From Candidatus Altimarinota bacterium (GTDB lineage: Bacteria > Patescibacteriota > Gracilibacteria > UBA1369): DNA of 32,000 nucleotides. Shown piece by piece: positions 9,160-31,467 of this stretch. Position 1 is the first letter of the stretch; every line of letters starts with the position of its first letter. The position numbers and the translations under genes were made by a program. The notes below the pieces were generated by a model, which was not told the DNA's origin, did no database searches, and saw only the letters and a list, made by a program, of their open reading frames with translations. The stretch covers positions 1,165-33,164 of the forward strand of contig JBAZYK010000014.1 of the NCBI GenBank assembly GCA_041659405.1, given 5' to 3'.

Positions 9160-10179
9160 CTAAAAAACAAACATGGCATCACCAAAACTATAGAAACGAT
9201 ACTTTCTTCTTATAGCTTCATCATAAGCTTTCAGGGTAAAATCCTTCCCGGCAAAGGAAGAAACCAGTAGCAGCAGCGAACTTTGAGGCAGATGGAAATT
9301 GGTTATCATCCCCCTAACACATTTCCATTCATACCCGGGATAAATAAAAATACTGGTCTTTTGAAGACCGGTCGCAAAGCCGGTTTTTTGGTCAAAAGCA
9401 CTTTCCAGAACCCTAACGGAAGTAGTTCCCACAGCCACAATCCTGCGTCCTTCCTGCTGCGCCTTAAAAAGACGCCCGGCCGTTCCATCATCAATTTCAA
9501 AAAACTCCTCGTGCATTTTATGTTCTTCAATTTTTGGAACCTTAATTGGCAAAAAAGTACCAAGTCCAACATGCAAAGTCACAAATTCCAGCTGGATCCC
9601 CTTATTTTTCAGCTTGGCCAAGAGCTCTTCCGTAAAATGCAAACCGGCCGTTGGCGCCGCCACACTCCCATGTTTATCCGCATAAACGGTTTGATAATCA
9701 GCAAAACTCGCCTGAGGATTTTTAATATATGGCGGAAAGGGAGGTAATCCAACCTTAAAAAGTTCACTCTCTAGATCCGCGCCATTAAGCGAAAAAGCCA
9801 CCAGGCGCTGTCCATCTTCCAGAATATCTTCAACCACAAAAGACAAATTTTCATTGATTTTAAATTCCGCCCCTTGCTTTAAAACCTTTCCGGGCTTGGC
9901 TAAAACAAACCAACGCTGATGATCTTTCTGTCTAATCAGGAAAATTTCCAGCGTTCTTTCTCCACGTTTAAACAAAATTCTGGCAGGAATAACCTTGGAA
10001 TTATTAAAAACCAAAACATCACCGGGATTCAAATAATCTAAAATATCATAAAAATGCTTATGCTCAATTTGCCGTTTAGCACTATCAAGAACCATTAATT
10101 TACAAGAATCTCTGGGTGTAGCCGGCTTTTGCGCAATCAGCTCCGGCGGCAAGCAATAGTCAAAATCCTTTAAGAACAT
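9160..10179 (-). CDS. queA: S-adenosylmethionine:tRNA ribosyltransferase-isomerase
   Basis: 339 aa. FDYCLPPELIAQKPATPRDSCKLMV N-terminus, AAPTAGLHFT, VGTTSVRVLES. Confidence 0.93.
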   Translation of the reverse strand: MFLKDFDYCLPPELIAQKPATPRDSCKLMVLDSAKRQIEHKHFYDILDYLNPGDVLVFNNSKVIPARILFKRGERTLEIFLIRQKDHQRWFVLAKPGKVLKQGAEFKINENLSFVVEDILEDGQRLVAFSLNGADLESELFKVGLPPFPPYIKNPQASFADYQTVYADKHGSVAAPTAGLHFTEELLAKLKNKGIQLEFVTLHVGLGTFLPIKVPKIEEHKMHEEFFEIDDGTAGRLFKAQQEGRRIVAVGTTSVRVLESAFDQKTGFATGLQKTSIFIYPGYEWKCVRGMITNFHLPQSSLLLLVSSFAGKDFTLKAYDEAIRRKYRFYSFGDAMFVF

Positions 10180-10181
10180 AA

Positions 10182-11375
10182 TTATAAAATTGATTTCTCT
10201 TTATCATTAGCTGCAGGAACTTGTGGCTCCGCCATATCACTCCAGCTGGTCGAATTTTTAACAGCTGTTTCGATTGTGTCTTTAGAGCCGCTAAAACGAA
10301 TCGCCATCAAAGTCACATCGTCTTCCTGAACATGATCCTGAACAAATCTGGAAAAATCACGTGCAACATGAAACACAATTCCTTCAGGGCCATATTGCGG
10401 CGCATAAAGTTGAATTGCCTGCTTTAATCTATCCAGTCCAAACATTTCACCGGCCATATTTCTGGCTTCTGTAAGACCATCACTGTAAAGAATAATCACG
10501 TCATCTTTCATCAATGGAAGCGTAACTTCTTTCACGATTTTGCTGTTATCGGCAACCATTCCAAGAGCAATACCACCGGCCATTTTATCTTCACATTCTC
10601 CTTTGTGGGCTCTGTAAACAAGCAAATGCTCGTGACCGGCTCCCACATAACTCATTGTTTGAGTAGTCGAATTCCATTTCAACATCAACATCGTCATGAA
10701 CATGGTTGACTTGATTCTGGCCTTTAATTGGCGGTTTGTTTGAACCACAACATCATAAGCACTATCATAAACATCAACCAAAGTATGAATCAGCGTATTC
10801 ACCATCATCATGATCAAAGCCGCAGGAACTCCATGTCCGGTCACATCTCCAATGTAAATAAAAGTATTATCTTTATTAGTTATGAAATCGAAATTATCAC
10901 CACCAAGCTCAACAGCCGGCCTTGTTTTGGCTACAATGTCCAATCCCGCAATGTGTGGCGCGGCAGTCGGCAAAATCTCTTTTTGAATCTGCCCGGCAAT
11001 TTCCAGCTCACCCATCATGCGTTTTCCTTCACGCAGTTGATTGGAGATTTTTTCAAAATTTCTGGTAACTTCATTAAAAAAATGAGCGATAACCCCAATT
11101 TCATCAATCCTTTTACTAAAGAATCTTTTGTATTCTTTTCCCATTAACAAAGCCCTGATTTCATTTAAAATAACGTTCATTGGTCTGACAAACTCATACC
11201 AGTAAACAAGCAGGAAATAAGCCAAAAAGAAGACAAGCACCCCGGCAAAAGTAACCAGACTTATATTTTGATAATTCTGAGAAAAAAAGTAATAAACTAT
11301 TACAGCGGCCAACACTGTAAAAAGAATAAAATAGTTAAATACTTTCCAAAGGATGCTTTTTCTGAAGAAATTCAT
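10182..11375 (-). CDS. Membrane-bound HAMP-domain PP2C/SpoIIE-family serine phosphatase (RsbU-like)
   Basis: 397 aa. Two N-terminal TM helices and a HAMP-like linker (RIDEIGVIAHFFNEVTRNF). PP2C motifs GGDNFDF, GDVTGHGVPAAL, LYSDGLTEA, DDVTLMAI. Confidence 0.85.
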   Translation of the reverse strand: MNFFRKSILWKVFNYFILFTVLAAVIVYYFFSQNYQNISLVTFAGVLVFFLAYFLLVYWYEFVRPMNVILNEIRALLMGKEYKRFFSKRIDEIGVIAHFFNEVTRNFEKISNQLREGKRMMGELEIAGQIQKEILPTAAPHIAGLDIVAKTRPAVELGGDNFDFITNKDNTFIYIGDVTGHGVPAALIMMMVNTLIHTLVDVYDSAYDVVVQTNRQLKARIKSTMFMTMLMLKWNSTTQTMSYVGAGHEHLLVYRAHKGECEDKMAGGIALGMVADNSKIVKEVTLPLMKDDVIILYSDGLTEARNMAGEMFGLDRLKQAIQLYAPQYGPEGIVFHVARDFSRFVQDHVQEDDVTLMAIRFSGSKDTIETAVKNSTSWSDMAEPQVPAANDKEKSIL

Positions 11376-11384
11376 AAAAATAAA

Positions 11385-11753
11385 TTAAGCTCCGATTTTT
11401 TCCACAAACTGGTTTAAAGTATCATAGTAAGTAACCACTGAAAAAAGACCAATTACCTGAAAAATATCTTTAACATTAGCCTTGGCATTAACAACAACCA
11501 AAGCCTTTCCGGTTTTAACCAAATGTGAATGGATAGCCATTAAAAAGCCAATACTTTCACTGTTGATATAATCCAAAGCACCAAAATCAAAAACCAGATA
11601 TTGCAAACTGTAATTTTCGATTAAGGCCTCAAGTTTGCCCTTAACTTCGGTCAAACCGGCTTTATCCATTTCACCACGGAATTCCACCACCTGATATTTA
11701 TTTAAAGGCGGAACAATTTGAATAGTTAGATTTTCTGCTGAATAGTCACTCAT
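11385..11753 (-). CDS. STAS-domain anti-sigma-factor-antagonist-like protein (RsbV/SpoIIAA-like), copy 1
   Basis: 122-aa single STAS domain. LVFDFGALDYINSESIGFL keeps a Ser at the position phosphorylated in SpoIIAA (FMDSSGLG). Confidence 0.8.
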   Translation of the reverse strand: MSDYSAENLTIQIVPPLNKYQVVEFRGEMDKAGLTEVKGKLEALIENYSLQYLVFDFGALDYINSESIGFLMAIHSHLVKTGKALVVVNAKANVKDIFQVIGLFSVVTYYDTLNQFVEKIGA

Positions 11754-11768
11754 ATTTAAAAAATTAAA

Positions 11769-14189
11769 TTATACAGGCTCTAATACTTGAGCATTTTGAA
11801 TTAAAGAAGTAGAAGCAATTTCAATTTCGGAAGATTTTCTTTTCTCTAAAATATCATCAATCAACTGTGCTTCATGATAAGCCTCCAGACAAAGATAGGC
11901 TTCTTTAAGCTTAAATAACAATTCAGAGTCGGCACTTTGCAATAAAGAATTCATATTGGGTGACTTGAAAAACAAATGATGTAATTTTACCGAAATTTCT
12001 TTTTGTAATACCGAAACCATGACCATCTGCAAGTCTGGACTCAACTCATGCAAAAGTTCACGCGTCTTGGCTAAGACTACTGAATTTTTCCCCAAAAGTA
12101 AATGAGCAAGATAGCTTCCGGCTTCCCGATAACCCAATTTCAAAAGCGAACAGGAGGCATACAATCGCAACTCCGGATTGGAAACGGTAAGATAGGGGAT
12201 TAATTCGTTCCTTCCCTCGCCAATATCTCCGGCAATCGAACACGCAGCGACCTGATCGTTGAAAGAAATCGATCTCAACATAAAATAAAAAATCTTCTTC
12301 AACCTGGTGCGCAACTTTTTAAATTGCCAAAGCGTCACCAACGCCTGCGCTCTAACAAAAGCATCCCCGGCGTGCAAATAAGGCTCAACATAATAAATAA
12401 TATTCGGATCATTAAATAACTCGCAAGCACGAATGGAAGCAGCCTGCAATTTAGGCCCGGAATTCTTTAAAATATCCAACAAAAAAGGAACAATTTCCGG
12501 ATCACGAAAATGCGCCAAAGTTTTAATAATCGCAGTTTGAATTTGTTCATTTGGCTTTTCTGCAAACAATTTCTTTAGTTCATCAATAACCCTGTATCTG
12601 GCAAAAGACTGTTTAAGCATATATTTCTTCAACCGAGGAAATGCTTCTAAAGCCTTTATTGCAGCCAATACTAGATGTTGATCCTTGGAATTAAGAAAGT
12701 GCAAAATATCGGGGATATTTTCAATATTTCCAATCTTCCCAAGCATTTGTAGAATTTTGACCTTGATCAAGGTATCCTCGGAACTCTTATGTAAAGCCTT
12801 AACCAAAATAGGAGCGGCATTTTTATGGCCCTGTTGAGACAAAATTTCAATTGCATGCAGTTTTGAAATGGCATTTTCACCAATCGAAAGATTATTTTGA
12901 GCAAGCTTTGTATAACGATTTTGAAGTCTGAATGTAAGAACCACCATTGCCAGTGCCAAAGTCACAAAGCTCAATTGTATGAGCAAAGACGCATCTTTTT
13001 CCAGAAAAAACCATTGAATAAACAAAAGCATGACTGTTCCAATGATAGTTCCAAGTGGCAATAAAAGTGCTTCAAAAAGCTCTCTTACCTGGCGTTGTGT
13101 CCCATGCTTTAAGGCATAATAAGAAGCCTCATAGGCATTCCTGTTTATTACACCGGAAATCTCAAAATTATTCTTTGCCAAGATCGTAGTAAAAGTTCCA
13201 AACCCAAAAAATAAAGATAAAGCGCTAAAAAACGTCATCAAGGCATGAATCATAAAACTGGCCACAGTACCATATTTTTTCAAGATTCTACTTGCAACAA
13301 ATAACTGAACAAAAAGCGCGCAGGCATTAAACAAGATATAAAAAGACGCCAATCCCTGAGTCAGCCCTTCTTCCTGAGCAGCCTCCGTTTGAACGCCATG
13401 CAATCCACCTTCAATCACGTTAGTATATTGATACTCAAGCAGATGGGCAATAATCCATTGTAAAAGGAAAATCACAAATAAAGATTGTAGAAAAGGAACA
13501 GACCGCAAATGAGTTACCGCAGACTTAAATTCCCTAAAACGTTCCACCAAGAATGGCTTTTCTGAAACCTTTTTAGCATGAATGATATGATGATAAGAAG
13601 AAACTTTTGGTTGCAAAAACAAAGTAACACTTACCAGTAAAAATAAGAAAAATGTCCAAATATAGAGTAATTTAACCGGTTGAACAAACATGGTTAAACT
13701 GGCAGCCAACAAACCCGCAAAGATACCACCAAGCGTTTCCGAAGAATCAATAATCGGGGAGATTCTTTCACATTCCAATGGCGAGAAAAAGTCCTCCAGA
13801 TAGTTCGAAATAAATATTGTTAATTGAGGAACAAAAATACCAAAAGTAAGCAACAAAAAAGCAAAGAATATAAAAACATGATTCAAAAACAAAGTCGCAA
13901 CAAACAATAACGAGCCGGAAATCAGAGCACACATAACAATAAGGCTCCTAACCGATAAATGCTCATGTAGAAAAGCAAACAAGAACATTCCCAAAATATT
14001 TAAAAGAGCCTGGATCAAGAAAAGATAGGGGAGCGAAGTGATCGAAAATCTTGTAACAAACATGGCTGTTAAAACCGTCCAGCCAATCACAAACCCCACA
14101 CGATGCAAAAACTTCACAAACCAGGCGTAAGCCGTTCTTGGCAATTCGTGAGGAGAAATATTAAAGATTTTTTCAATAAGTTTTAGCAT
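11769..14189 (-). CDS. Polytopic transporter-like membrane domain (MFS or NTT/TLC-like) fused to a C-terminal HEAT-repeat domain
   Basis: 806 aa. The first ~430 residues are almost entirely hydrophobic helices. The C-terminal half consists of HEAT/PBS-lyase-like repeats (AAPILVKALHKSSEDTLIKVKILQMLGKIG, DQHLVLAAIKALEAF, PEIVPFLLDILKNSGPKLQAASIRACE). The membrane-domain family is assigned from the architecture, not from a search. Confidence 0.6.
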   Translation of the reverse strand: MLKLIEKIFNISPHELPRTAYAWFVKFLHRVGFVIGWTVLTAMFVTRFSITSLPYLFLIQALLNILGMFLFAFLHEHLSVRSLIVMCALISGSLLFVATLFLNHVFIFFAFLLLTFGIFVPQLTIFISNYLEDFFSPLECERISPIIDSSETLGGIFAGLLAASLTMFVQPVKLLYIWTFFLFLLVSVTLFLQPKVSSYHHIIHAKKVSEKPFLVERFREFKSAVTHLRSVPFLQSLFVIFLLQWIIAHLLEYQYTNVIEGGLHGVQTEAAQEEGLTQGLASFYILFNACALFVQLFVASRILKKYGTVASFMIHALMTFFSALSLFFGFGTFTTILAKNNFEISGVINRNAYEASYYALKHGTQRQVRELFEALLLPLGTIIGTVMLLFIQWFFLEKDASLLIQLSFVTLALAMVVLTFRLQNRYTKLAQNNLSIGENAISKLHAIEILSQQGHKNAAPILVKALHKSSEDTLIKVKILQMLGKIGNIENIPDILHFLNSKDQHLVLAAIKALEAFPRLKKYMLKQSFARYRVIDELKKLFAEKPNEQIQTAIIKTLAHFRDPEIVPFLLDILKNSGPKLQAASIRACELFNDPNIIYYVEPYLHAGDAFVRAQALVTLWQFKKLRTRLKKIFYFMLRSISFNDQVAACSIAGDIGEGRNELIPYLTVSNPELRLYASCSLLKLGYREAGSYLAHLLLGKNSVVLAKTRELLHELSPDLQMVMVSVLQKEISVKLHHLFFKSPNMNSLLQSADSELLFKLKEAYLCLEAYHEAQLIDDILEKRKSSEIEIASTSLIQNAQVLEPV

Positions 14190-14236: not shown

Positions 14237-14265
14237 ATTATAATACACAAGCGCAAATATAGCAA
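14237..14265 (-). promoter_or_regulatory. Sigma70-like promoter for the transporter-STAS-phosphatase operon
   Basis: The minus strand reads TTGCTA (14260-14265), 17-nt spacer, TATAAT (14237-14242), about 47 nt upstream of the ATG at 14189. Confidence 0.45.
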
Positions 14266-14310: not shown

Positions 14311-15417
14311 CTAAAACTTACCTTTATACCGAATATCCCCAACAATCAAAACATCCGGCCCAAACCTTTTAGTTTCAAGATTGATTAAATCTATACTTTT
14401 AGCCATTTTATTGATTCCAAGATCATTAACAAAGGGGATTCCTCCGCCAATAATCCTTGGCGCAATAAAAAAGTAACTTTTCTGAATCAGTCTCTCTTTC
14501 AAAAAAGCGGTAAAAAGCCCACCACCGGCCTCCAGCATAATTTTTCCAATATTTTTTTGGTATAAATCCTTAAGCAAATTTTTTAAAGGAATTCTCTCCC
14601 CGGGATAAACCAAAACCTCGATCCCTTTTTGCTTAAAAGCCTCAAATTTAACACCTTTAGCCACATTTGTAGCAACAATCACATTTTGATCACGATAAAC
14701 TTTGGCATCAAGACCGGTTTCAAGCCTGGAATCAATAATAATTCGCTTAGGATCTTTTCCCTTAACCATCCTCACTCCCAAATGCGAATCATCACTTAAA
14801 ACGGTTTTAGCCGACGTCACAATCGCATCCACCCAATTTCTCATTCTGTGAACTTCTTTTCGTGATTCCTCACCGGTAATCCATTTTGAATCTCCTGTAG
14901 CTGTCGCGATTTTTCCATCCAGCGTTATTGCCATTTTAGAGATAACAAACGGTGATTTATGCAGAACATTATGAATAAAAACCTCATTTAATTTCCGAGC
15001 TTCCTGCTCAAGCAGTCCAATTTCAACCTTTATTCCGGCTTTTTTTAACAACTCCATACCCTTTCCATTCACTAATTTAAACGGGTCACGCATGGCTATT
15101 TTAACGTGCTTAACACCTTTGTTGATCAAATAATTTGTACAAGGAGGAGTCTTCCCAAAGTGAGCACAAGGCTCCAAAGTAACATATAAAATTCCGCCTT
15201 TAATCTGTTGAGGTGATAACTTGGAAAGCGCCTCAACCTCTGCATGTGGCCGACCGGCTTTTTTATGATAACCTTCAGCAATAATTTTATTATTTTTCAC
15301 AAATACAGCCCCAACCATTGGATTAGGGAAAGTTCGCCCCCTGGCTTTTTCAGCAAGCACAAAAGCCCTTTGCATAAAAAGCCTGTCCTGTTTAGAAAAT
15401 TTATTAGACATAATCAA
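14311..15417 (-). CDS. ribD: Bifunctional riboflavin biosynthesis protein RibD (pyrimidine deaminase / uracil reductase)
   Basis: 368 aa. Deaminase zinc motifs HAEVEAL and TLEPCAHFGKTPPC, followed by a reductase-type C-terminal half. Confidence 0.92.
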   Translation of the reverse strand: MIMSNKFSKQDRLFMQRAFVLAEKARGRTFPNPMVGAVFVKNNKIIAEGYHKKAGRPHAEVEALSKLSPQQIKGGILYVTLEPCAHFGKTPPCTNYLINKGVKHVKIAMRDPFKLVNGKGMELLKKAGIKVEIGLLEQEARKLNEVFIHNVLHKSPFVISKMAITLDGKIATATGDSKWITGEESRKEVHRMRNWVDAIVTSAKTVLSDDSHLGVRMVKGKDPKRIIIDSRLETGLDAKVYRDQNVIVATNVAKGVKFEAFKQKGIEVLVYPGERIPLKNLLKDLYQKNIGKIMLEAGGGLFTAFLKERLIQKSYFFIAPRIIGGGIPFVNDLGINKMAKSIDLINLETKRFGPDVLIVGDIRYKGKF

Positions 15418-16018
15418 GCAAGTGACCTAAACGATTTTTTTTTGTTAACAAATAGCCTTTATTTACTTTATTAGGTTTAATTTGAATTGATATACGCTTA
15501 ACAACATCAATGCCGCACTGCGTAATTTCTTTTATTTTTTTAGGATTATTGGTAAGAAGTTTAATTTTCTTCACTCCAAATTCAGCCAACATCAAAGCGG
15601 CAATATCATATTCCCTGGCATCCGCTTCAAACCCCAATTGCTTATTTGCATCCACCGTATCAAAACCAAGATCCTGCAAAGCATAAGCCTTAATCTTATT
15701 GACCAAACCAATACCACGCCCCTCCTGTCTTAAATAAAGCAAGATACCGGACTTTTCTTTTTTGATTTGTTTTAAACTTGCTTGAAGCTGGGGCCCACAA
15801 TCACAACGCAATGAACCAAAAATATCACCGGTTAAACATTCAGAATGAATTCTAACCAACATCGGTGTATCTTTTTTAATTTTCCCCATCACCAAAGCAA
15901 CATGCTCTTTATTATCTTTTCCTCTAAACACATACAAATGGAACAGGCCGGATTTTGTTGGAAGCAAAGCGTCAGCCACCTTTTTTAACTGATTTTTTTT
16001 GTTGTTTTCTGTATTCAA
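15404..16018 (-). CDS. ribA: GTP cyclohydrolase II
   Basis: 204 aa. VRIHSECLTGDIFGSLRCDCGPQL zinc/GTP motif and LRQEGRGIGL. The ORF begins with TTG at 16018 and overlaps the ribB 3' end in another frame. Confidence 0.9.
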   Translation of the reverse strand: MNTENNKKNQLKKVADALLPTKSGLFHLYVFRGKDNKEHVALVMGKIKKDTPMLVRIHSECLTGDIFGSLRCDCGPQLQASLKQIKKEKSGILLYLRQEGRGIGLVNKIKAYALQDLGFDTVDANKQLGFEADAREYDIAALMLAEFGVKKIKLLTNNPKKIKEITQCGIDVVKRISIQIKPNKVNKGYLLTKKNRLGHLLDYV

Positions 16019-16610
16019 TGAGATCCTTTATTGAAATAAGTCTTAGTTTATAATTTTTAGCAAATTCAATCAAAAAAGGCAAACGTGCCATTTCCCCACT
16101 ATCTTCAGCAATTTCACAAAGTACACCAACTTCCTTTAATCCCGCCAACTTCATCAAATCCAACGTGGCCTCTGTATGTCCCGGTCTTTCAAAAACACCA
16201 TCATCACAGGCACGAATAGGAAAAACATGTCCGGGTTGAGCAAAATCATCGGACTTGGAAGAATCGGAAGCCAGAGAATTTATTGTTTTAGCTCTATCGG
16301 AAGCCGAAATTCCTGTTGTAGTTCCAAAACGATAATCAATCGAAATAGTAAAATTAGTCCTAAAAGCCTCATTATTCTTTTTAGCCATATGGTAAAGATC
16401 CAGTCGATCCGCCAACTTATTTGAAATAGGAGCACAAATCAACCCACGGCCTTTTTGCGCCATGAAATTTATGTCGGCAGCTGTCACTTTTTCCCCGGAC
16501 ATAATCAGATCACCTTCATTCTCCCGATCTTCATCATCAACCACCACAAGCATCTTGCCTGCTTTAATATCCTCAATAGCGGCCTCAATACCTTTCAAAA
16601 TATCCTTCAT
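15972..16610 (-). CDS. ribB: 3,4-dihydroxy-2-butanone-4-phosphate synthase
   Basis: 212 aa. [20 protein letters not shown]-like FTISIDY, and PGHVFP motifs. Confidence 0.9.
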
Positions 16611-17248: not shown

Positions 17249-17806
17249 TTAAGACTGAGGTTTATCTGACGATTGTGGCTGTTCAGCATCCTGCGTAGAA
17301 GTTGGTTGCTGGCCGGTTATAGCCTGGGTAGCCGCTTTTGTTAAAACAGTTACCGGCAACTTTTCCGCAACATCACCTAAAACAGGAATCTTCCACCAAT
17401 TACCCATAAATGCCAAATAAGCTGAATATATGGACAAAACAAAAAGTACAAATTGACCCAACATCCCCAAAATTGGACCTAAAGGCCAAAACAAAACGTA
17501 CATAATAACAGTACAGAAAAACAAACCCAACATCAGCAATCCCTGTTTACCATGAAGCTTCACATAGGCACTTTCAGGTCTAACAATCAAAGCCAATAAC
17601 GCCATCATTGGTATATAACAAATAGCTCCCCAAAGCCGATCATCAGAACTAACGGCTGGTTGCACAATTGCAGTTACTGGTGCAGGTGACGAAACCGAAG
17701 CAGCAGTTGGACTTTGAGCCGCTACAGGCTGAACCGGCTGAGTATTTTGACTCTGCGCATTTTCAACAGGAGCGGAAGAAGAGGATTCTACTTTATTATC
17801 AAGCAT
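17249..17806 (-). CDS. DUF4870-like integral membrane protein with low-complexity termini
   Basis: 185 aa. P/A/S/Q-rich N-terminus. Core DDRLWGAICYIPMMALLALIV...YVKLHGKQGLLMLGLFF...AFMGNWWKIPVLG resembles the DUF4870 pattern. Q/S/P-rich C-terminal tail. Confidence 0.55.
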   Translation of the reverse strand: MLDNKVESSSSAPVENAQSQNTQPVQPVAAQSPTAASVSSPAPVTAIVQPAVSSDDRLWGAICYIPMMALLALIVRPESAYVKLHGKQGLLMLGLFFCTVIMYVLFWPLGPILGMLGQFVLFVLSIYSAYLAFMGNWWKIPVLGDVAEKLPVTVLTKAATQAITGQQPTSTQDAEQPQSSDKPQS

Positions 17807-18690: not shown

Positions 18691-19215
18691 ATGGAAACAC
18701 CAACTCCGGAAAACAAACCGGTAAAAATAACAATCACCCTGCCTACCAATGCTTATTTCATGTCGGGGATAAGAGATTTTACTTTATCTCTCATTCGCAA
18801 CATGACCGAATTTTCGGAACAATGGGCATTCAGGTTTCAATCCGTAGTTGATGAACTTTGCAATAACGCAATTGAACACGGCACAGCGCCGGGAGATGAT
18901 ATTAAAATAACTTTCATCAGCAATCCTCACGAAAGTATTGAAATATTGGTTGAAGATAAAAATAACGGCACAAATAAAACAACCGCCGAACAACTAAAAC
19001 AACTGATAGATGAAAGAAGAAAACCAAACTACATTCACAAAGGTATCCGTGGCAGAGGACTTTCTAAAATCGTCGCAGAATGGACGGATGAATTGGAGTT
19101 TAAAGATATAGAAAATAATGGTATTTTAGTTAGAGTGAAAAAGAATTTAAACGATCCAAAACTCAAAGAAATGGCACAATCCTCAGCGGATCCAAGTCAT
19201 CTTGTGCTCAATTAA
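18691..19215 (+). CDS. RsbW/SpoIIAB-like anti-sigma-type serine kinase (HATPase_c_2 fold)
   Basis: 174 aa. N-box VVDELCNNAIEHG, EILVEDKNNG, and G-box GIRGRGLSKIV. Confidence 0.75.
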   Translation: METPTPENKPVKITITLPTNAYFMSGIRDFTLSLIRNMTEFSEQWAFRFQSVVDELCNNAIEHGTAPGDDIKITFISNPHESIEILVEDKNNGTNKTTAEQLKQLIDERRKPNYIHKGIRGRGLSKIVAEWTDELEFKDIENNGILVRVKKNLNDPKLKEMAQSSADPSHLVLN

Positions 19216-19275: not shown

Positions 19276-19662
19276 ATGACAGAAATAAACATTACAGTTG
19301 AAGACATTCCGGCAACTACTCAAAACCAAGCGGTAAAACTGGCTAAATTCCAGGGACAGCTTGATGAAAGCAACGTTGACGAAAAATCCAAAATTATTTA
19401 CGGACTCATCGAGCAAAATCCTAAAAACTTATATTTACTTTTCGACTTTGAAGAATTGGAATATATGAATAGCAAGGCCGTAGGATACCTGACCGACTGG
19501 TATGGCAAAATTGCGGAAGCCCAGGGCAAAATCGTTATAGCAAAAGCTAAAAGCAACATCTTGGATATTCTTCAGGTCGTGGGTTTGACTCAACTGATTA
19601 ACACCTATCCAACTTTGGACGAAGCGAAATTTGCGTTATTGCATGACGTTGCTGCACATTAA
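19276..19662 (+). CDS. STAS-domain anti-sigma-factor-antagonist-like protein, copy 2
   Basis: 128 aa. LLFDFEELEYMNSKAVGYL retains the phospho-acceptor Ser position. ILDILQVVGL helix near the C-terminus. Confidence 0.8.
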   Translation: MTEINITVEDIPATTQNQAVKLAKFQGQLDESNVDEKSKIIYGLIEQNPKNLYLLFDFEELEYMNSKAVGYLTDWYGKIAEAQGKIVIAKAKSNILDILQVVGLTQLINTYPTLDEAKFALLHDVAAH

Positions 19663-19684: not shown

Positions 19685-20788
19685 ATGGACAGCACCTTTA
19701 CCCTCTATCTTGTTTCTGGACTCTTAGCCCTCGCCCCGGCGGCAATTTGGTTAACCGTGATTTTCAAAAAAACTAAAAGACACGGATTACAAGTACTGCT
19801 CTTTCTTGCGGGAACACTCTCGGTGATTCCGATTTTTGCAATGCAGTACTTCCTGAACTTCTTCCCTCAATTTAGCATTGTCAACTTTCTTCAGGAAAAC
19901 ATCAATGATCAAAATTTCAATTTTATCGTACTTTTTATATGTGTTGGAATAACCGAAGAAATAGTTAAACAAGCCTTAATAAGATTCATAGACAAAAGGT
20001 ACTTGCTGATAGAAACAATCAACGAATCAATTCAATTCAGCCTGGTTGCAGCTTTGGGGTTTTCATTCATTGAAAATATTTTTTACATCTATCATATTTG
20101 GACAAATCTGGGTATCCAACAGCTTTTCATAGCCTACTTATTCAGATCAATTTTCACTACCTGCGCCCACCTTATGTTTTCCGGCATATTCGGTTATTAT
20201 TATGGAATTGCAAAATTCTCATTAAATATTCGTGAACAATCGGAAATGGCCGGCAAAAAACATCATTTCCAAAGGTTCCTGGCAAGAGTCTTTAACTATT
20301 CCAAATCTCAAGCCTTTAAAGAAACAACTATCTTAAAGGGACTTTTTATTGCAATCGGACTACATGCGATTTTTGACTTCCTTCTACAATTAAACCAAAT
20401 TATACCGGTAGTTATTTTCGTAGTGATCGGTTATGGAATTTTGCGACTTCTATTAAAGCAAAAAACAGGAAGGCTTGTTTTGATAAACGATATCGATAAC
20501 GTCCGTGAATCAAGCATGGCAAAGACGGATGAAGAAGTTGTTGTTGAGCTACTCGGCATGTGGTTTAAGGAAAAAAAGTATGTCGATGTAATTCATATCT
20601 GCGAAAGACTTTTGGAACGTGATCCGGACAATAAGGTCGTTCAATTATTCAAGAGTAAAGCCATAGATAACATGAGCAATAACAGTATTTATGCCAAAAT
20701 TTTGGGAACAATGTTTCCAGCCAAATCGATTTCCATTTCAAAACTCATCAAAGTAAAAGAAAAAGACACCAAAGAAGAAAAACTTTAG
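19685..20788 (+). CDS. PrsW-family intramembrane protease with a TPR-like C-terminal tail
   Basis: 367 aa, polytopic. PrsW/CPBP-type motifs GITEEIVKQ (EExxK), CAHLMFSG, GLHAIFDF (HxxxD). Soluble tail KKYVDVIHICERLLERDPDNKVV. Confidence 0.7.
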   Translation: MDSTFTLYLVSGLLALAPAAIWLTVIFKKTKRHGLQVLLFLAGTLSVIPIFAMQYFLNFFPQFSIVNFLQENINDQNFNFIVLFICVGITEEIVKQALIRFIDKRYLLIETINESIQFSLVAALGFSFIENIFYIYHIWTNLGIQQLFIAYLFRSIFTTCAHLMFSGIFGYYYGIAKFSLNIREQSEMAGKKHHFQRFLARVFNYSKSQAFKETTILKGLFIAIGLHAIFDFLLQLNQIIPVVIFVVIGYGILRLLLKQKTGRLVLINDIDNVRESSMAKTDEEVVVELLGMWFKEKKYVDVIHICERLLERDPDNKVVQLFKSKAIDNMSNNSIYAKILGTMFPAKSISISKLIKVKEKDTKEEKL

Positions 20789-20844: not shown

Positions 20845-21963
20845 ATGTCCCTAAAAAACGTTAAACTGGCAATCGTTTGTGACTGGTTAACAAACACCGG
20901 TGGAGCAGAAAAAGTTATTTTGGCTCTCCACCATCTTTTTCCGAAAGCGCCAATTTACACTTCCATTTATAATCCACAAAAAATTAAAGGATTTGAAAAC
21001 GCGATAATCAACACTTCATATCTGCAAAACCTTCCTTTTGCAAAAGACAAACATCAATTGTATTTAGCATTGATGCCACACGCCTTTGAAAGGTTTGATT
21101 TGAGCGGGTACGACATTGTTATTTCAAGCTCTCACTCTTGCGCTAAAGGCGTAATAACCAAACCGCAAACTTTACATATTTGTTATTGCCATTCCCCAAT
21201 GCGTTATGCCTGGGAAAATAGTCACAAATATATTCAGGAGTACGAAGTAAACAGTATTGTAAAAAAGATCGCACCGCTTTTCATGCACAAAATAAGAATG
21301 TGGGATCGATTAAGCGCAGACAGAGTGGATAATTTTATTGCCAATTCCAAGCACATCCAAAATCGAATCAATAAATATTATCGCAAACCATCAAGCGTTA
21401 TTTATCCATTTGTTGATTGCAAAAATTATAATGTTAACCCAAATCGACAAGACTTCTTTTTGGCCGTAGGAAGACTAACGCCTTACAAAAAATTTGACCT
21501 TATAATTGAAACTTTTAACGAACTGAACCTGCCCTTGAAAATTGTTGGAACGGGAGTTGCCTACAAAAAATTAAAAGAAATGGCCAATGACAATATTGAA
21601 TTTCTGGGCCACGTTTCAAACAATAAATTAACGGAACTATACAGCCAGGCAAAAGCCCTTATCTTTCCGCAAATTGAGGATTTCGGGATTACTCCGTTAG
21701 AGGCAATGGCTTCGGGATGCCCGGTAATAGCCTATAACAAAGGTGGTGCCCTGGAAACAATCGTCGATAAAAAGACCGGAATATTTTTCAATGAGCAAAA
21801 TGCAGTTACTTTAAAGGCGGCAATTGAAAAATTCAACAAAATGAATTTCGATCCACAGGCAATCAGAGAACATGCCGAGAAATTTGATTTAAAGATCTTT
21901 AACGAGAAAATGCTTGAATTTATTGAGAAAAAGTGGGAAAACTGGGTAACCGATATGCATTAA
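20845..21963 (+). CDS. Glycosyltransferase family 4 (GT-B, retaining)
   Basis: 372 aa. N-terminus LAIVCDWLTNTGGAEKVILAL. C-terminal donor-binding motif EDFGITPLEAMASGCPVIAYNKGGALE. Confidence 0.85.
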   Translation: MSLKNVKLAIVCDWLTNTGGAEKVILALHHLFPKAPIYTSIYNPQKIKGFENAIINTSYLQNLPFAKDKHQLYLALMPHAFERFDLSGYDIVISSSHSCAKGVITKPQTLHICYCHSPMRYAWENSHKYIQEYEVNSIVKKIAPLFMHKIRMWDRLSADRVDNFIANSKHIQNRINKYYRKPSSVIYPFVDCKNYNVNPNRQDFFLAVGRLTPYKKFDLIIETFNELNLPLKIVGTGVAYKKLKEMANDNIEFLGHVSNNKLTELYSQAKALIFPQIEDFGITPLEAMASGCPVIAYNKGGALETIVDKKTGIFFNEQNAVTLKAAIEKFNKMNFDPQAIREHAEKFDLKIFNEKMLEFIEKKWENWVTDMH

Positions 21964-25219: not shown

Positions 25220-26137
25220 TTAGCCTGTGATAGCTTTAAGAATAATATTAACAATTGACCAAGCAAGTAACGCCAACCCCATGCCCATAAGTGCGGAGCT
25301 GATAGTTTTTTTACCCTTTTCTTTATCTTCACCAAGGCCACCAACCACGTACCTGTAACCTCCAATCACAATGAATAAAACGGAAATTAAACCAACCAGG
25401 CCTAAAGCAAAATCAATGATGTAGGTTATAAAATATGGAACCAATGCCAAATTCATTCTCCCGGTTTTGATAGCACAACCTAAAAGATTTTTTCTAGCAT
25501 CAATAATTTGATCTGAATTAAGTTTTTCATCCACACTTCCTCCAACAGCATCAAATTCATCTCGCATTTGTTTAAGATCCTGCTCTGCAGAATTCAAATT
25601 TTCCTGTAATTTATCAGTTGATACCTTCAAATTTGCAACTTTACTCCGGGCATCATTATATGTTTTTTCATAATCATTACACTTAAAAGGTCCACCCACA
25701 CCCGCTCCATCCAGACATGTTTTCCTTGCTTCCGCTGCTTGTGTAACAGCATCATTCGCCTTCTCCTGCTCCCCTAATGCAGTATTTAACTCATTTTGAG
25801 CCTTTTCATTTGCCTGTTTAGCATCATCCAAGGTTTTAGAAGCATTATTGTAATCAACTGCATTTTTTGCTTGGTCAGCATCAGGAACTATGCCATTTGA
25901 TAAAAAATCATTAATTGTACTTTGACACTCCTCAATGGTCTTACTCGTACTCGGCAAAAGCGTGAATTGCGCATAAGCTGGCGCAACCATCAACATTGAA
26001 AGTAAACAGGAAACGGAAAGGTAACGAAAAAGTTTCACAATATGAGGGAAAAAATCATCCAAATCATACAGAGAAAATTCAGAAATCTCAAATTTCATTT
26101 TTAAATAAATAACTTCCAATTCTGATTTCGGTTGCAC
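25220..26137 (-). CDS. Secreted coiled-coil protein ending in a two-helix T4SS-pilin-like (TrbC/VirB2-like) membrane module
   Basis: Signal peptide LSVSCLLSMLMVAPAYA and a ~170-aa charged coiled-coil region with 4 Cys. The C-terminus LISVLFIVIGGYRYVVGGLGEDKEKGKKTISSALMGMGLALLAWSIVNIIL matches my recollection of the CPR T4SS_pilin family. The likely true start is the ATG at 26098 (MKFEIS). Confidence 0.45.
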   Translation of the reverse strand: MQPKSELEVIYLKMKFEISEFSLYDLDDFFPHIVKLFRYLSVSCLLSMLMVAPAYAQFTLLPSTSKTIEECQSTINDFLSNGIVPDADQAKNAVDYNNASKTLDDAKQANEKAQNELNTALGEQEKANDAVTQAAEARKTCLDGAGVGGPFKCNDYEKTYNDARSKVANLKVSTDKLQENLNSAEQDLKQMRDEFDAVGGSVDEKLNSDQIIDARKNLLGCAIKTGRMNLALVPYFITYIIDFALGLVGLISVLFIVIGGYRYVVGGLGEDKEKGKKTISSALMGMGLALLAWSIVNIILKAITG

Positions 26138-29208: not shown

Positions 29209-31467
29209 ATGGAAAAAACACCGGATTTACAAACATATTTGGATCATATCCTGAAAAATATACCGCATGAACCCGGGGTATATAAAATGAAGGACAAAGA
29301 TGGAAATATCATCTACGTTGGCAAAGCCAAAAATTTAAAAAATCGCGTTTCCAGTTATTTTCAAAATCGCAACGATAAGGCCATGCGAACGCAAAAAATG
29401 GTCGAACATATTGCCGATATCGAATATATCGTTGTTAAAACGGAACTTGAAGCTCTTTTGCTGGAAACAAACTGGATTAAAGAAATAAGGCCAAAATACA
29501 ACATCCTGATGAAGGACGATAAAAGTTACGTTTACATCAAAATAACAACTCAGGACCTTTATCCGCGAATTTATTTGGTAAGAAAAGTTGATCGGGACAG
29601 GGCACGTTACTTTGGCCCAAAAACTGCCGGACATAAAGTCATCAAAACACTAAAAGTATTAAAAAAAGTTTTTCCTTTTAGGAATTGCGAACTGGCAATC
29701 GACTATACGATTCACACTGGAAGCACAGTTAAAAAAACTTTATCAGAGAGCCAACTGCAATATCACATTAGTCATTGCATTGGGCCATGCGTAGCCTCGG
29801 TTAAGCCCGAAAATTACAGAAAAATGATCGATGAGGTTATCAACTTTCTGGAAGGAAAACATGAAGGAATTATCGAAAAAATCAAAGAAGATATGTACAA
29901 AGCGGCAAGTGAAAAAAAGTTCGAAGTTGCTGCGTCAATTCGTGACCGTCTTAAAGCTGTTGAAGAGATTATTGAGCCACAACGCATTAGTGATCCACAC
30001 CAAAAAGACCTGGACATCATCAATTATGTTGAGCAGGATGACAAAATCTATTTCAATCTTTTTCAGCTAAGAAATGGCAAACTAATCGGCCAGGAAAATT
30101 TTATTTTTAAAGCCCAGACAGAAAGGGAACAGGAAGATCCTGAAGCACTCAATGCGTTTTTGGAACAGTACTATGAAAAAGCCACCGATTTACCAAAGGA
30201 AATCCTGATTCCTCATCACGTTGATGAACCTGAAATGATCGAACAATGGTTATCACAGGTGAAAGGACAAAAGGTAAGTTTAATTATTCCTGAACGCGGG
30301 AAAAAGAACCAGTTATTGGAACTTTCCCTGGCGAATGCCCAAAGTTACGCTAAACAAAGCCAAATTAAATGGCAAGGAGCGGAAAAGGAAACTCGAACAA
30401 AGGCACTTGAAGGTTTACAAAAAATCTTAGGACTAACCAAAATCCCCAGACGCCTTGAGTGTTATGACATTTCACATTTTTCAGGAACCGAAACCGTTGC
30501 GTCCATGGTCGTATTTGAAAATGGATTCCCTAAAAAAGATGATTACCGAAAATTCAAACTCCATCAACAAACGGCCGGCGCGCCCGATGATTTTGCCTCA
30601 ATGGAAGAAGCTTTAACCAGAAGAATCAAATATCTTAAACCTTCCATTAATCTTGAAAATCTCAAAATTAAAAAAGCCAAGAAAAAAGAATTGGAAGAAA
30701 TAAAGAAAGAATTAAAAGCCGAAAATCTTCCTGTAGGCGACTTTTTAGCAATAGAAAAAGAAAAGAAGAGGATTGGATACGCACATGTGAACGTTTTCCC
30801 AAGTAAGAAAACTCTTATTGAAGACATCCACATCATTGAAAAATTAGACACAGGCTTTCTCATAAAAAAACTTATCGAAAAGTATAAAGTGCACAGAATG
30901 TATCTGCTTTGCGATACAGCTGATCAGGCCAAATATGAAGAATTTGGCTTTGAAGCCATCAAAAAACTGCCGGACGAATTCGCCGAAAAAGAAGGTCAAA
31001 CCTATTTGGTTTTTGACCGAAACAAATATAGCGAAGATTCATCTTTCAAAAAAGTACCGGATTTAATCATTATTGATGGAGGAAAAGGCCAATTAAGCTC
31101 GGCCATAAAGGCATTAAACAAGTATGGCCTACCCCTAACCATGATTTCAATCGCCAAAAAAGAAGAAGAGCTTTTTAGACCTAATGAAAGCGAATCAATC
31201 AAACTCGAAAAAAACAATCCAATCCTGCACATGATTCAGCACATTCGTGATGAAGCGCATCGCTTTGCCATTACTTACCACAAAAACCTAAGAAGCAAAG
31301 CATCCATGAGTTCAATTTTAGACACTTTACCCGGAATTGGGCCGGAAACAAAAATCCTACTATTAAAACAATTTGGCTCCGTAGAAGGAATCAAAAATGC
31401 CCAGGAAGAAGAGTTGATTAAGCTTATTGGGCCAACGCTTGCAAAAAAACTTAAGGATTCACTTTAG
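29209..31467 (+). CDS. uvrC: Excinuclease ABC subunit C with a large internal insertion
   Basis: 752 aa. GIY-YIG GVYKMKDKDGNIIYVGKAKNLKNRVSSYF, UVR domain FEVAASIRDRLKAVEEI, ECYDISHFSGTETVASMVVF, IIDGGKGQL, IRDEAHRFAITYH, HhH LPGIGPETKILLLKQFGS. Extra sequence lies between the RRIKY and PDLIIIDGG motifs. Confidence 0.92.
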   Translation: MEKTPDLQTYLDHILKNIPHEPGVYKMKDKDGNIIYVGKAKNLKNRVSSYFQNRNDKAMRTQKMVEHIADIEYIVVKTELEALLLETNWIKEIRPKYNILMKDDKSYVYIKITTQDLYPRIYLVRKVDRDRARYFGPKTAGHKVIKTLKVLKKVFPFRNCELAIDYTIHTGSTVKKTLSESQLQYHISHCIGPCVASVKPENYRKMIDEVINFLEGKHEGIIEKIKEDMYKAASEKKFEVAASIRDRLKAVEEIIEPQRISDPHQKDLDIINYVEQDDKIYFNLFQLRNGKLIGQENFIFKAQTEREQEDPEALNAFLEQYYEKATDLPKEILIPHHVDEPEMIEQWLSQVKGQKVSLIIPERGKKNQLLELSLANAQSYAKQSQIKWQGAEKETRTKALEGLQKILGLTKIPRRLECYDISHFSGTETVASMVVFENGFPKKDDYRKFKLHQQTAGAPDDFASMEEALTRRIKYLKPSINLENLKIKKAKKKELEEIKKELKAENLPVGDFLAIEKEKKRIGYAHVNVFPSKKTLIEDIHIIEKLDTGFLIKKLIEKYKVHRMYLLCDTADQAKYEEFGFEAIKKLPDEFAEKEGQTYLVFDRNKYSEDSSFKKVPDLIIIDGGKGQLSSAIKALNKYGLPLTMISIAKKEEELFRPNESESIKLEKNNPILHMIQHIRDEAHRFAITYHKNLRSKASMSSILDTLPGIGPETKILLLKQFGSVEGIKNAQEEELIKLIGPTLAKKLKDSL

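Follow-up and report, generated by a model that had tools for sequence, protein, structure and literature searches.

We analyzed a stretch of 32,000 nt of Peregrinibacteria/Peribacteria genome DNA (the window; coordinates are positions within it unless another locus is named), in which three consecutive open reading frames (ORFs) on the minus strand encode an MFS-type transporter with a HEAT-repeat tail (MFS-HEAT), a single-domain STAS protein (STAS1), and a membrane PP2C phosphatase. The ORFs are separated by gaps of 15 and 9 nt and are followed after 2 nt by queA, and the ORF listing agrees in each of these spacings with an earlier reading of the same DNA made from its letters (the original prediction). 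Four plus-strand genes in a row, 4.5 kb from the MFS-HEAT/STAS1/PP2C genes, encode an RsbW-like kinase, a second STAS protein (STAS2), a PrsW-family protease, and a GT4 glycosyltransferase (Table 1). The original prediction took the three minus-strand genes as a unit; we find that the kinase-side operon belongs with them and is conserved as strongly. Together, these genes appear to constitute a module of the Rsb type that lacks a sigma gene and has its phosphatase arm linked to a HEAT-tailed transporter, a linkage that, as judged from gene neighborhoods across the phylum, is real and conserved.

The nearest genomes carry Peribacteria or Peregrinibacteria labels, and the exact 806-aa transporter is already recorded as an MFS transporter in a "Candidatus Gracilibacteria" metagenome-assembled genome. 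For comparison, one genome per species was scanned, which gave 80 loci, almost all from Peregrinibacteria/Peribacteria, and the window proteins were mapped onto these loci by tblastn. The standard genetic code (table 11) fits the window. The alternative code of some Gracilibacteria (UGA = Gly) was ruled out, since code 11 gives full-length ORFs for the window as well as for 79 of the 80 genome loci.

Table 1. Features of the transporter-phosphatase and kinase-side gene clusters, with their positions in the 32,000-nt window.
Feature	Position	Strand	Basis or remark
MFS-type transporter with C-terminal cytoplasmic HEAT solenoid, 806 aa	11769..14189	minus	Pfam, AlphaFold2, Foldseek, hhalign
Transporter membrane domain, ~residues 1-430	12900..14189	minus	AlphaFold2/Pfam
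Transporter HEAT domain, ~residues 436-806	11772..12884	minus	AlphaFold2/Pfam
STAS1, 122-aa single-domain STAS, RsbV/SpoIIAA type	11385..11753	minus	Pfam STAS, E 4e-13; NCBIfam TIGR00377
Membrane PP2C phosphatase, 397 aa	10182..11375	minus	Pfam SpoIIE/PP2C, E 6e-46
queA	9160..10179	minus	Pfam Queuosine_synth, E 1.6e-124; start 2 nt past PP2C stop codon
Promoter-like TTGCTA-17-TATAAT	14237..14265	minus	10/12 consensus positions; upstream of transporter gene
RsbW-like GHKL serine kinase, anti-sigma type	18691..19215	plus	Pfam HATPase_c_2, E 5e-9; weak NCBIfam matches to RsbW, SpoIIAB
STAS2, 128-aa STAS, co-operonic with kinase	19276..19662	plus	Pfam STAS
PrsW-family intramembrane protease with cytoplasmic C-terminal extension	19685..20788	plus	Pfam PrsW-protease, E 4e-22; downstream of STAS2
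GT4 glycosyltransferase, closes kinase-STAS2 operon	20845..21963	plus	Pfam Glycos_transf_1, Glyco_transf_4

Pfam confirms the transporter, STAS, and phosphatase identities (MFS_1/HEAT_2, STAS, and SpoIIE, respectively) that had been proposed for the three minus-strand genes. The 806-aa protein matches MFS_1 over residues 23-336 (E 2.6e-9), followed by HEAT_2 (E 6e-21) and HEAT_PBS; among 52 members of its family, 47 match MFS_1 and 51 match HEAT, and TLC (PF03219), which the original prediction had named for checking alongside MFS_1, is matched by none at E<=1. An AlphaFold2 model based on 52 homologues (pLDDT 89, pTM 0.85) has an all-helical MFS-type domain and then a helical repeat solenoid. 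Because the pTM of 0.85 covers the whole 806-aa chain, the model implies a fixed placement of the solenoid at the cytoplasmic side of the MFS domain. The HEAT fold assigned to the C-terminal half is borne out by the Pfam matches, by the modeled solenoid, and by the sequence profile of the transporter, which matches alphaRep/HEAT structures in the PDB. Foldseek likewise returns alphaRep for the repeat domain and, for the membrane domain, MFS structures that include the AtNTT1 and Chlamydia NTT1 nucleotide (ATP/ADP) transporters; the generic MFS hits (SV2A, NTT1, NupG, SLC15, NorA) score alike and none stands out, so no substrate can be assigned from the fold.

An hhalign comparison aligns 590 columns over both domains to a TLC+HEAT protein with 97% probability, which makes the transporter a distant relative of, or sister to, the NTT-HEAT fusions (Major et al. 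2017, PMC5381601). Its own family is large, with 2017 representatives at 50% clustering matching at E<=1e-30. NTT-HEAT fusions are widespread, Chlamydia and cyanobacteria being among the groups that have them, and no function is known for any; that of the Chlamydiae is likewise uncharacterized, and in other phyla a cyclic nucleotide monophosphate (cNMP)-binding regulatory protein is encoded downstream or fused (PMC5381601). Our literature search found no paper giving NTT-HEAT proteins a function. The architecture here resembles that of NTT-HEAT and NTT-HEAT-cNBD proteins in that a 12-helix-type transporter carries a C-terminal HEAT domain and is followed by a small regulatory gene; unlike in those proteins, the membrane domain is Pfam MFS_1 rather than TLC, and STAS and PP2C genes take the downstream place of the cNMP-binding protein. 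Since a cNMP-binding gene follows or is fused to the NTT-HEAT relatives, HEAT tails seem to recur beside signaling partners; within our loci, such a gene adjoins only a distant TLC+HEAT homologue (L081). By analogy, the cNMP-binding neighbors of NTT-HEAT proteins fit a HEAT tail that serves as a docking platform for signaling proteins.

The phosphatase has two transmembrane (TM) helices (residues ~8-32 and ~40-61), a HAMP-like helix-connector-helix (~62-134), and a SpoIIE-type PP2C domain (168-361), in which the motifs GGD, GDVTGHG, AGHE, DG, and DD, with the metal-binding aspartates, are invariant among orthologues. In the AlphaFold2 model, the N terminus consists of two helices (8-32 and 40-77) with a 7- to 8-residue loop between them, followed by a 14-residue connector (78-91) and helix 92-134. 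Because the external loop is so short, as it is in all 16 aligned orthologues, the phosphatase is predicted to have no extracytoplasmic sensor domain of its own. Chlamydial RsbU differs in this respect: it reportedly has a periplasmic ligand-binding domain, a finding ascribed to Soules et al. in 2020. The original description of the N terminus as two TM helices and a HAMP-like linker stands as to the helices and the topology; Pfam HAMP (PF00672) did not match the isolated linker segment at E<=1. The linker has a conserved P65, a DEIG..FFNEVT motif, HAMP-type topology, and weak NCBIfam matches to histidine-kinase HAMP regions. "HAMP-like" thus seems the proper wording, given the motif, these weak matches, and the predicted topology. 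The phosphatase is 36-79% identical across loci, with poorly conserved TM helices.

The nearest folds to the PP2C domain are phosphatases of partner-switching systems (SiaA-PP2C, RssB, the RsbU domain of Rv1364c, SpoIIE, and RsbX). The PP2C domain of Pseudomonas aeruginosa SiaA is the top single-domain hit in structure (6k4e, TM-score 0.80), and SiaA also leads the NCBIfam matches. SiaABCD is a partner switch with a non-sigma output, in which a membrane PP2C phosphatase and a kinase act on a small phosphorylated protein that binds an enzyme. We rejected identity with SiaABCD, since the PP2C scores 51.5 bits with the SiaA model, for which the cutoff is 700, and no GGDEF/diguanylate cyclase (SiaD) occurs in the window; unlike in SiaABCD, moreover, the antagonists in the window are canonical STAS proteins.

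Both STAS proteins match Pfam STAS and TIGR00377 (anti-sigma factor antagonist), the latter at 54.8 bits for STAS1, just over the cutoff of 53.45. The proposed phospho-acceptor of STAS1, Ser65 in ...DYINSESIG... (an N-S-E-x-I-G motif, codon 11559..11561), is present as originally read and is invariant in 45 of 45 orthologues; Ser66 of STAS2 (19471..19473) is invariant in 39 of 39. In overall identity across loci, STAS2 (55-82%) far exceeds STAS1 (~24-65%), which is the least conserved protein of the signaling module. The kinase and STAS2 are the most conserved, followed by PP2C and then by MFS-HEAT (~25-70%) and STAS1. The RsbW-like protein is presumed to be the kinase for both STAS proteins. 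Its N and G2 boxes are invariant among orthologues; its G1 box (residues 89-93, 18955..18969) is DTGTG in 40 of 41 Peregrinibacteria orthologues, but the window has DKNNG and its three closest relatives have D(K/T)NNG. With this degenerate G1 box, the kinase of the window subclade may be a poor binder of ATP or work chiefly as a binding protein. A search for RsbW homologues revealed nothing about the target of the kinase: the best 120 listed hits, 66-84% identical, were all close relatives.

One kinase, two STAS proteins, and one membrane PP2C make up what appears to be a complete RsbU/RsbV/RsbW-type partner-switching set, encoded in two operons on either side of rpsB, tsf, and the rib genes. 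We read the four signaling proteins as one module because a different lineage encodes all of them in a single operon, with the kinase fused to a STAS domain. Set beside the RsbU/V/W and SpoIIE/AA/AB partner switches, which it resembles in its workings, the set has STAS proteins with the conserved serine, a SpoIIE-family PP2C with its metal-binding aspartates, and a kinase with N and G2 boxes but, in the window subclade, a degenerate G1 box; no sigma factor was found encoded with it. The original prediction held that neither a sigma nor an anti-sigma gene occurs in the 32 kb. Its first half stands for the scanned ORFs of at least 100 aa, a scan that left aside five opposite-strand ORFs of 101 to 154 aa almost wholly nested in larger genes; as to its second half, the kinase is itself an anti-sigma-type HATPase_c_2 protein. 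In the syntenic loci, which were never queried with a sigma sequence, the tblastn map leaves little unassigned space inside the block, and the word "sigma" does not occur in the Peribacteria complete-genome paper. A sigma-related domain was seen beside a single family member, at L061, where a Sigma70_r4+HARE-HTH gene, MFS-HEAT, and a STAS2-like gene lie on one strand (L061 8705..12812) and PP2C is absent.

A close parallel in gene content is the Rsb system of Chlamydia trachomatis, which also belongs to a reduced genome and comprises one membrane PP2C (RsbU), one RsbW-like kinase, and two STAS proteins (RsbV1 and RsbV2), with no co-encoded alternative sigma factor (PMC8256260).

The conservation of the gene neighborhood in related genomes, a check that the original prediction had named beforehand, was evaluated in the 71 genome loci that have at least 1.7 kb of sequence 3' of MFS-HEAT. 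STAS and then PP2C follow the transporter in 40 of these loci, PP2C follows directly without STAS in 20 (the gap is usually 0-50 nt), STAS alone follows in 1 (L061), and neither is found in 10. PP2C therefore lies downstream of MFS-HEAT in 60/71 loci, usually with only STAS1 between. A reciprocal scan of metagenomes with PP2C as the starting point yielded 62 informative loci, among which MFS-HEAT is upstream in 50 and all three genes are contiguous in 45. The neighborhood is thus conserved as anticipated, and we infer that the phosphatase gene is almost always cotranscribed with the MFS-HEAT transporter.

STAS1 is absent from 20 of the 60 loci in which PP2C follows MFS-HEAT. A check for a hidden STAS1 in these loci found gaps of mostly 0-50 nt and, in L053, an unrelated ORF instead (228 aa, L053 12337..13023, between MFS-HEAT and PP2C). 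On a neighbor-joining tree of the transporters, most STAS-less loci form one clade, and loci without an adjacent PP2C form another, with 11 members in variable contexts. STAS1 is thus dispensable for the transporter-phosphatase pairing; because the pairing outlasts STAS1, PP2C is a likelier partner for the transporter than STAS1 is.

This distribution bears directly on the mechanism advanced in the original prediction, namely, that STAS1, when unphosphorylated, binds to the HEAT domain and thereby gates uptake, so that a transporter and not a sigma factor is the output. The contiguity of the three genes in 40 genome and 45 metagenome loci and the invariance of the STAS1 serine are what such a mechanism would lead one to expect, and at L061 a STAS2-like gene again lies 29 nt after MFS-HEAT, in a different gene context and with no PP2C. 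There is also precedent for STAS proteins acting on transporters, as MlaB regulates the MlaFE transporter. In addition, NTT-HEAT relatives carry their cNMP-binding regulatory protein downstream or fused (PMC5381601), and STAS domains are integral to SLC26/SulP transporters (PMC8256260). A transporter of the SLC26/SulP type was itself rejected here, as the membrane domain is of the MFS type and the STAS domain is a separate 122-aa product. On the other hand, the loss of STAS1 from a third of the paired loci leaves no mark on the HEAT domain: the ratio of HEAT to MFS identity is 0.72 in loci with STAS1 and 0.74 in loci without it, so that the domain is equally constrained, relative to the MFS domain, in both. 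STAS1 is, moreover, the least conserved protein of the module; it persists with PP2C in three metagenome loci in which the syntenic block has lost the transporter (L103, L107, and L108), and compact operons without a transporter likewise encode two STAS proteins. Together with the phosphatase-free transporter clade, these observations tell against STAS1 acting on the HEAT domain, and we consider the mechanism quite improbable.

The compact operons, with the order kinase-STAS-STAS-PP2C and no transporter, were found in eight loci (L147, L148, L153, L155, L156, L160, L162, and L165). The two that were read (L153 4640..7179 and L155 5167..7191) encode, in this order, a PAS histidine kinase, a receiver-only response regulator, an RsbW~STAS fusion, a second STAS, and the same kind of PP2C, with two TM helices and a HAMP-like linker; the second STAS is a separate gene only in L153, and L155 has the fused STAS alone.

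A simpler explanation for the linkage is inherited gene order, with no functional tie to the transporter and with the switch acting elsewhere, for example, on the primary sigma factor, as is reported for the RsbW of Chlamydia. Because the whole ~20-kb block from GT4 to a gene for a 641-aa surface protein, housekeeping genes included, is syntenic across the phylum and has the same order in most loci, linkage by itself carries little weight. Junctions between functionally unrelated genes are equally tight, with median gaps of 26 nt for tsf-ribB and 14 nt for PP2C-queA (n = 39 loci), and the module and the transporter are each found without the other. The high conservation of the kinase and STAS2 is consistent with a conserved, essential target, and a partner switch that controls sigma-66 has been described in Chlamydia (PMC8256260). 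What gene order alone does not readily account for is that MFS-(STAS1)-PP2C stays intact while its flanks rearrange. The interval between MFS-HEAT and PP2C never exceeds 1 kb (maximum, 785 nt; n = 65), whereas more than 1 kb, usually with a divergent murJ, is inserted at the ribD-MFS-HEAT junction in 34 of 44 loci, and the junction between queA and the next gene has insertions of >1 kb in most loci; 18 loci lack queA after PP2C. At P0053, the most divergent homologue, MFS-STAS-PP2C-queA is still together, with other genes upstream of it. Finally, PP2C must receive some input, and it lacks its own sensor domain. On balance, we regard gene order without function as rather unlikely, although it is a serious contender.

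The reading that we favor is that the transporter is coupled to PP2C as its input or scaffold rather than being the target of STAS1. The lack of a sensor domain in PP2C makes the transporter more likely an input or scaffold than an output, and the retention of a short MFS-HEAT/PP2C interval amid insertions on either side argues for the coupling. A membrane signaling enzyme beside a transporter is not without parallel: BceS, a membrane histidine kinase with a minimal external loop is encoded beside the BceAB ABC transporter, which serves as the true sensor. The comparison is an analogy only, the components here being PP2C and MFS-HEAT rather than a histidine kinase and an ABC transporter. Because the TM helices of PP2C are poorly conserved, its contact with the transporter would more likely be cytoplasmic.

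Several points weigh against this coupling. It is read wholly from gene neighborhood, and inherited gene order could by itself explain much of the linkage, given how tight tsf-ribB and PP2C-queA also are. The module occurs without the transporter in the eight compact-operon loci and in L103, L107, and L108, and the transporter occurs without the phosphatase in its 11-member clade. The poorly conserved TM helices speak against a specific intramembrane contact, and the degenerate G1 box of the window subclade may mean that phosphorylation is weak in this organism. Thus, we put forward the transporter as input or scaffold of PP2C tentatively and would stop short of calling it probable.

From what is known of its family, the kinase would phosphorylate Ser65 of STAS1 and Ser66 of STAS2, and PP2C would remove the phosphate; by the same token, unphosphorylated STAS proteins would bind and sequester the kinase or bind another effector. 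The transporter, probably through its HEAT domain, would act on PP2C as input or scaffold, and transport status would set the phosphorylation state of the STAS proteins. Candidate outputs are the co-operonic GT4 or PrsW, the primary sigma factor, and feedback onto the transporter.

Among these candidates, the kinase-side operon directs attention to the cell envelope. RsbW, STAS2, (PrsW), and GT4 are on the same strand in this order in 25 of 26 informative loci. PrsW occupies its position in 23 of the 39 loci with RsbW and STAS2 that have at least 8 kb of upstream sequence, and in 8 of 11 PrsW-less loci GT4 starts 2 to 31 nt after STAS2. The operon suggests a glycosyltransferase output by analogy with Anabaena All4160, a STAS-glycosyltransferase fusion in which the phosphatase HenR and kinases set STAS phosphorylation and thereby directly control the glycosyltransferase (bioRxiv 10.64898/2026.04.08.717354; PMC8256260). 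The two systems differ in that STAS and the glycosyltransferase are one polypeptide in Anabaena and separate co-operonic genes, STAS2 and GT4, here. STAS2 or the kinase might accordingly control GT4, PrsW, or both, making synthesis or remodeling of envelope glycans the output, an arrangement compatible with input from the transporter. In keeping with this, GT4 genes also lie near four of the compact operons (that of L155 was confirmed), and murJ is the usual divergent neighbor of MFS-HEAT. However, the argument is one of gene neighborhood; GT4 genes are common, those beside the compact operons are weakly similar to the GT4 of the window (E 1e-7 to 1e-10), and no STAS-glycosyltransferase fusion was seen in this family. 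An envelope glycan output therefore strikes us as improbable, for all its appeal.

Joined into a single chain, the proposals would amount to a transporter-coupled switch: the HEAT domain would scaffold the sensor-less PP2C (and STAS where present), and substrate flux would set the phosphorylation of two RsbV-like proteins, which, via the RsbW-like kinase, would control GT4/PrsW or the primary sigma factor. We consider the chain unlikely to hold in its entirety. Were it to hold, host-dependent bacteria of the candidate phyla radiation (CPR) would have a growth or envelope switch gated by import, and this would be the first functional clue to the widespread NTT-HEAT fusions, Chlamydia's included. 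If the linkage is inherited gene order only, the finding shrinks to a routine Rsb-like module in a new phylum. Few partner-switching systems with non-sigma outputs are known so far, and there is no description of one from the CPR; a full-text literature search found no paper joining "partner-switching" and "candidate phyla radiation." The conserved transporter-phosphatase-STAS operon offers a testable idea for the HEAT tail, that it docks signaling proteins, and suggests a way in which very small, nutrient-dependent bacteria could couple uptake to regulation.

queA is probably the last conserved gene of the MFS-STAS1-PP2C operon. The promoter proposed upstream of the transporter gene is present as a sequence (TTGCTA-17-TATAAT), but such sites are not enriched in the region (29 found versus 29.9 expected from shuffled sequence), so that it provides no evidence of a promoter; counts from the scan for promoters and terminators together equal those in shuffled sequence and say nothing for or against an operon boundary. 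Another queuosine gene, tgt (queuine tRNA-ribosyltransferase, L035 12515..13675), follows the L035 transporter of the phosphatase-free clade, much as the window operon ends with queA. The adjacency of tgt and queA to the same transporter family may be a coincidence, and the idea that these proteins transport a queuosine precursor was set aside, two adjacencies being too few. On the other side of the transporter gene, murJ (lipid II flippase) lies divergently just upstream of MFS-HEAT in most lineages (L016 8290..9879 and ~30 other loci); the window has no murJ between ribD and MFS-HEAT, which are 121 nt apart.

The window has some other features of note. ribB (15972..16610) and ribA (15404..16018) overlap by 47 nt in different frames, and a related contig has a single fused 401-aa RibBA; the overlap is either a frameshift or a genuine split. 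Between rpsB and tsf, 17249..17806 encodes a DUF4870-like membrane protein with a Pro/Ala/Gln-rich N terminus, the position of which is kept in many loci. A 305-aa protein encoded at 25220..26137 has a coiled-coil-like middle and a C-terminal match to a type IV secretion pilin family (PF18895, E 9e-10). UvrC (29209..31467) is long for this protein, at 752 aa, and the UvrC RNase H endonuclease domain matches it twice, at separate places, perhaps reflecting an insertion.

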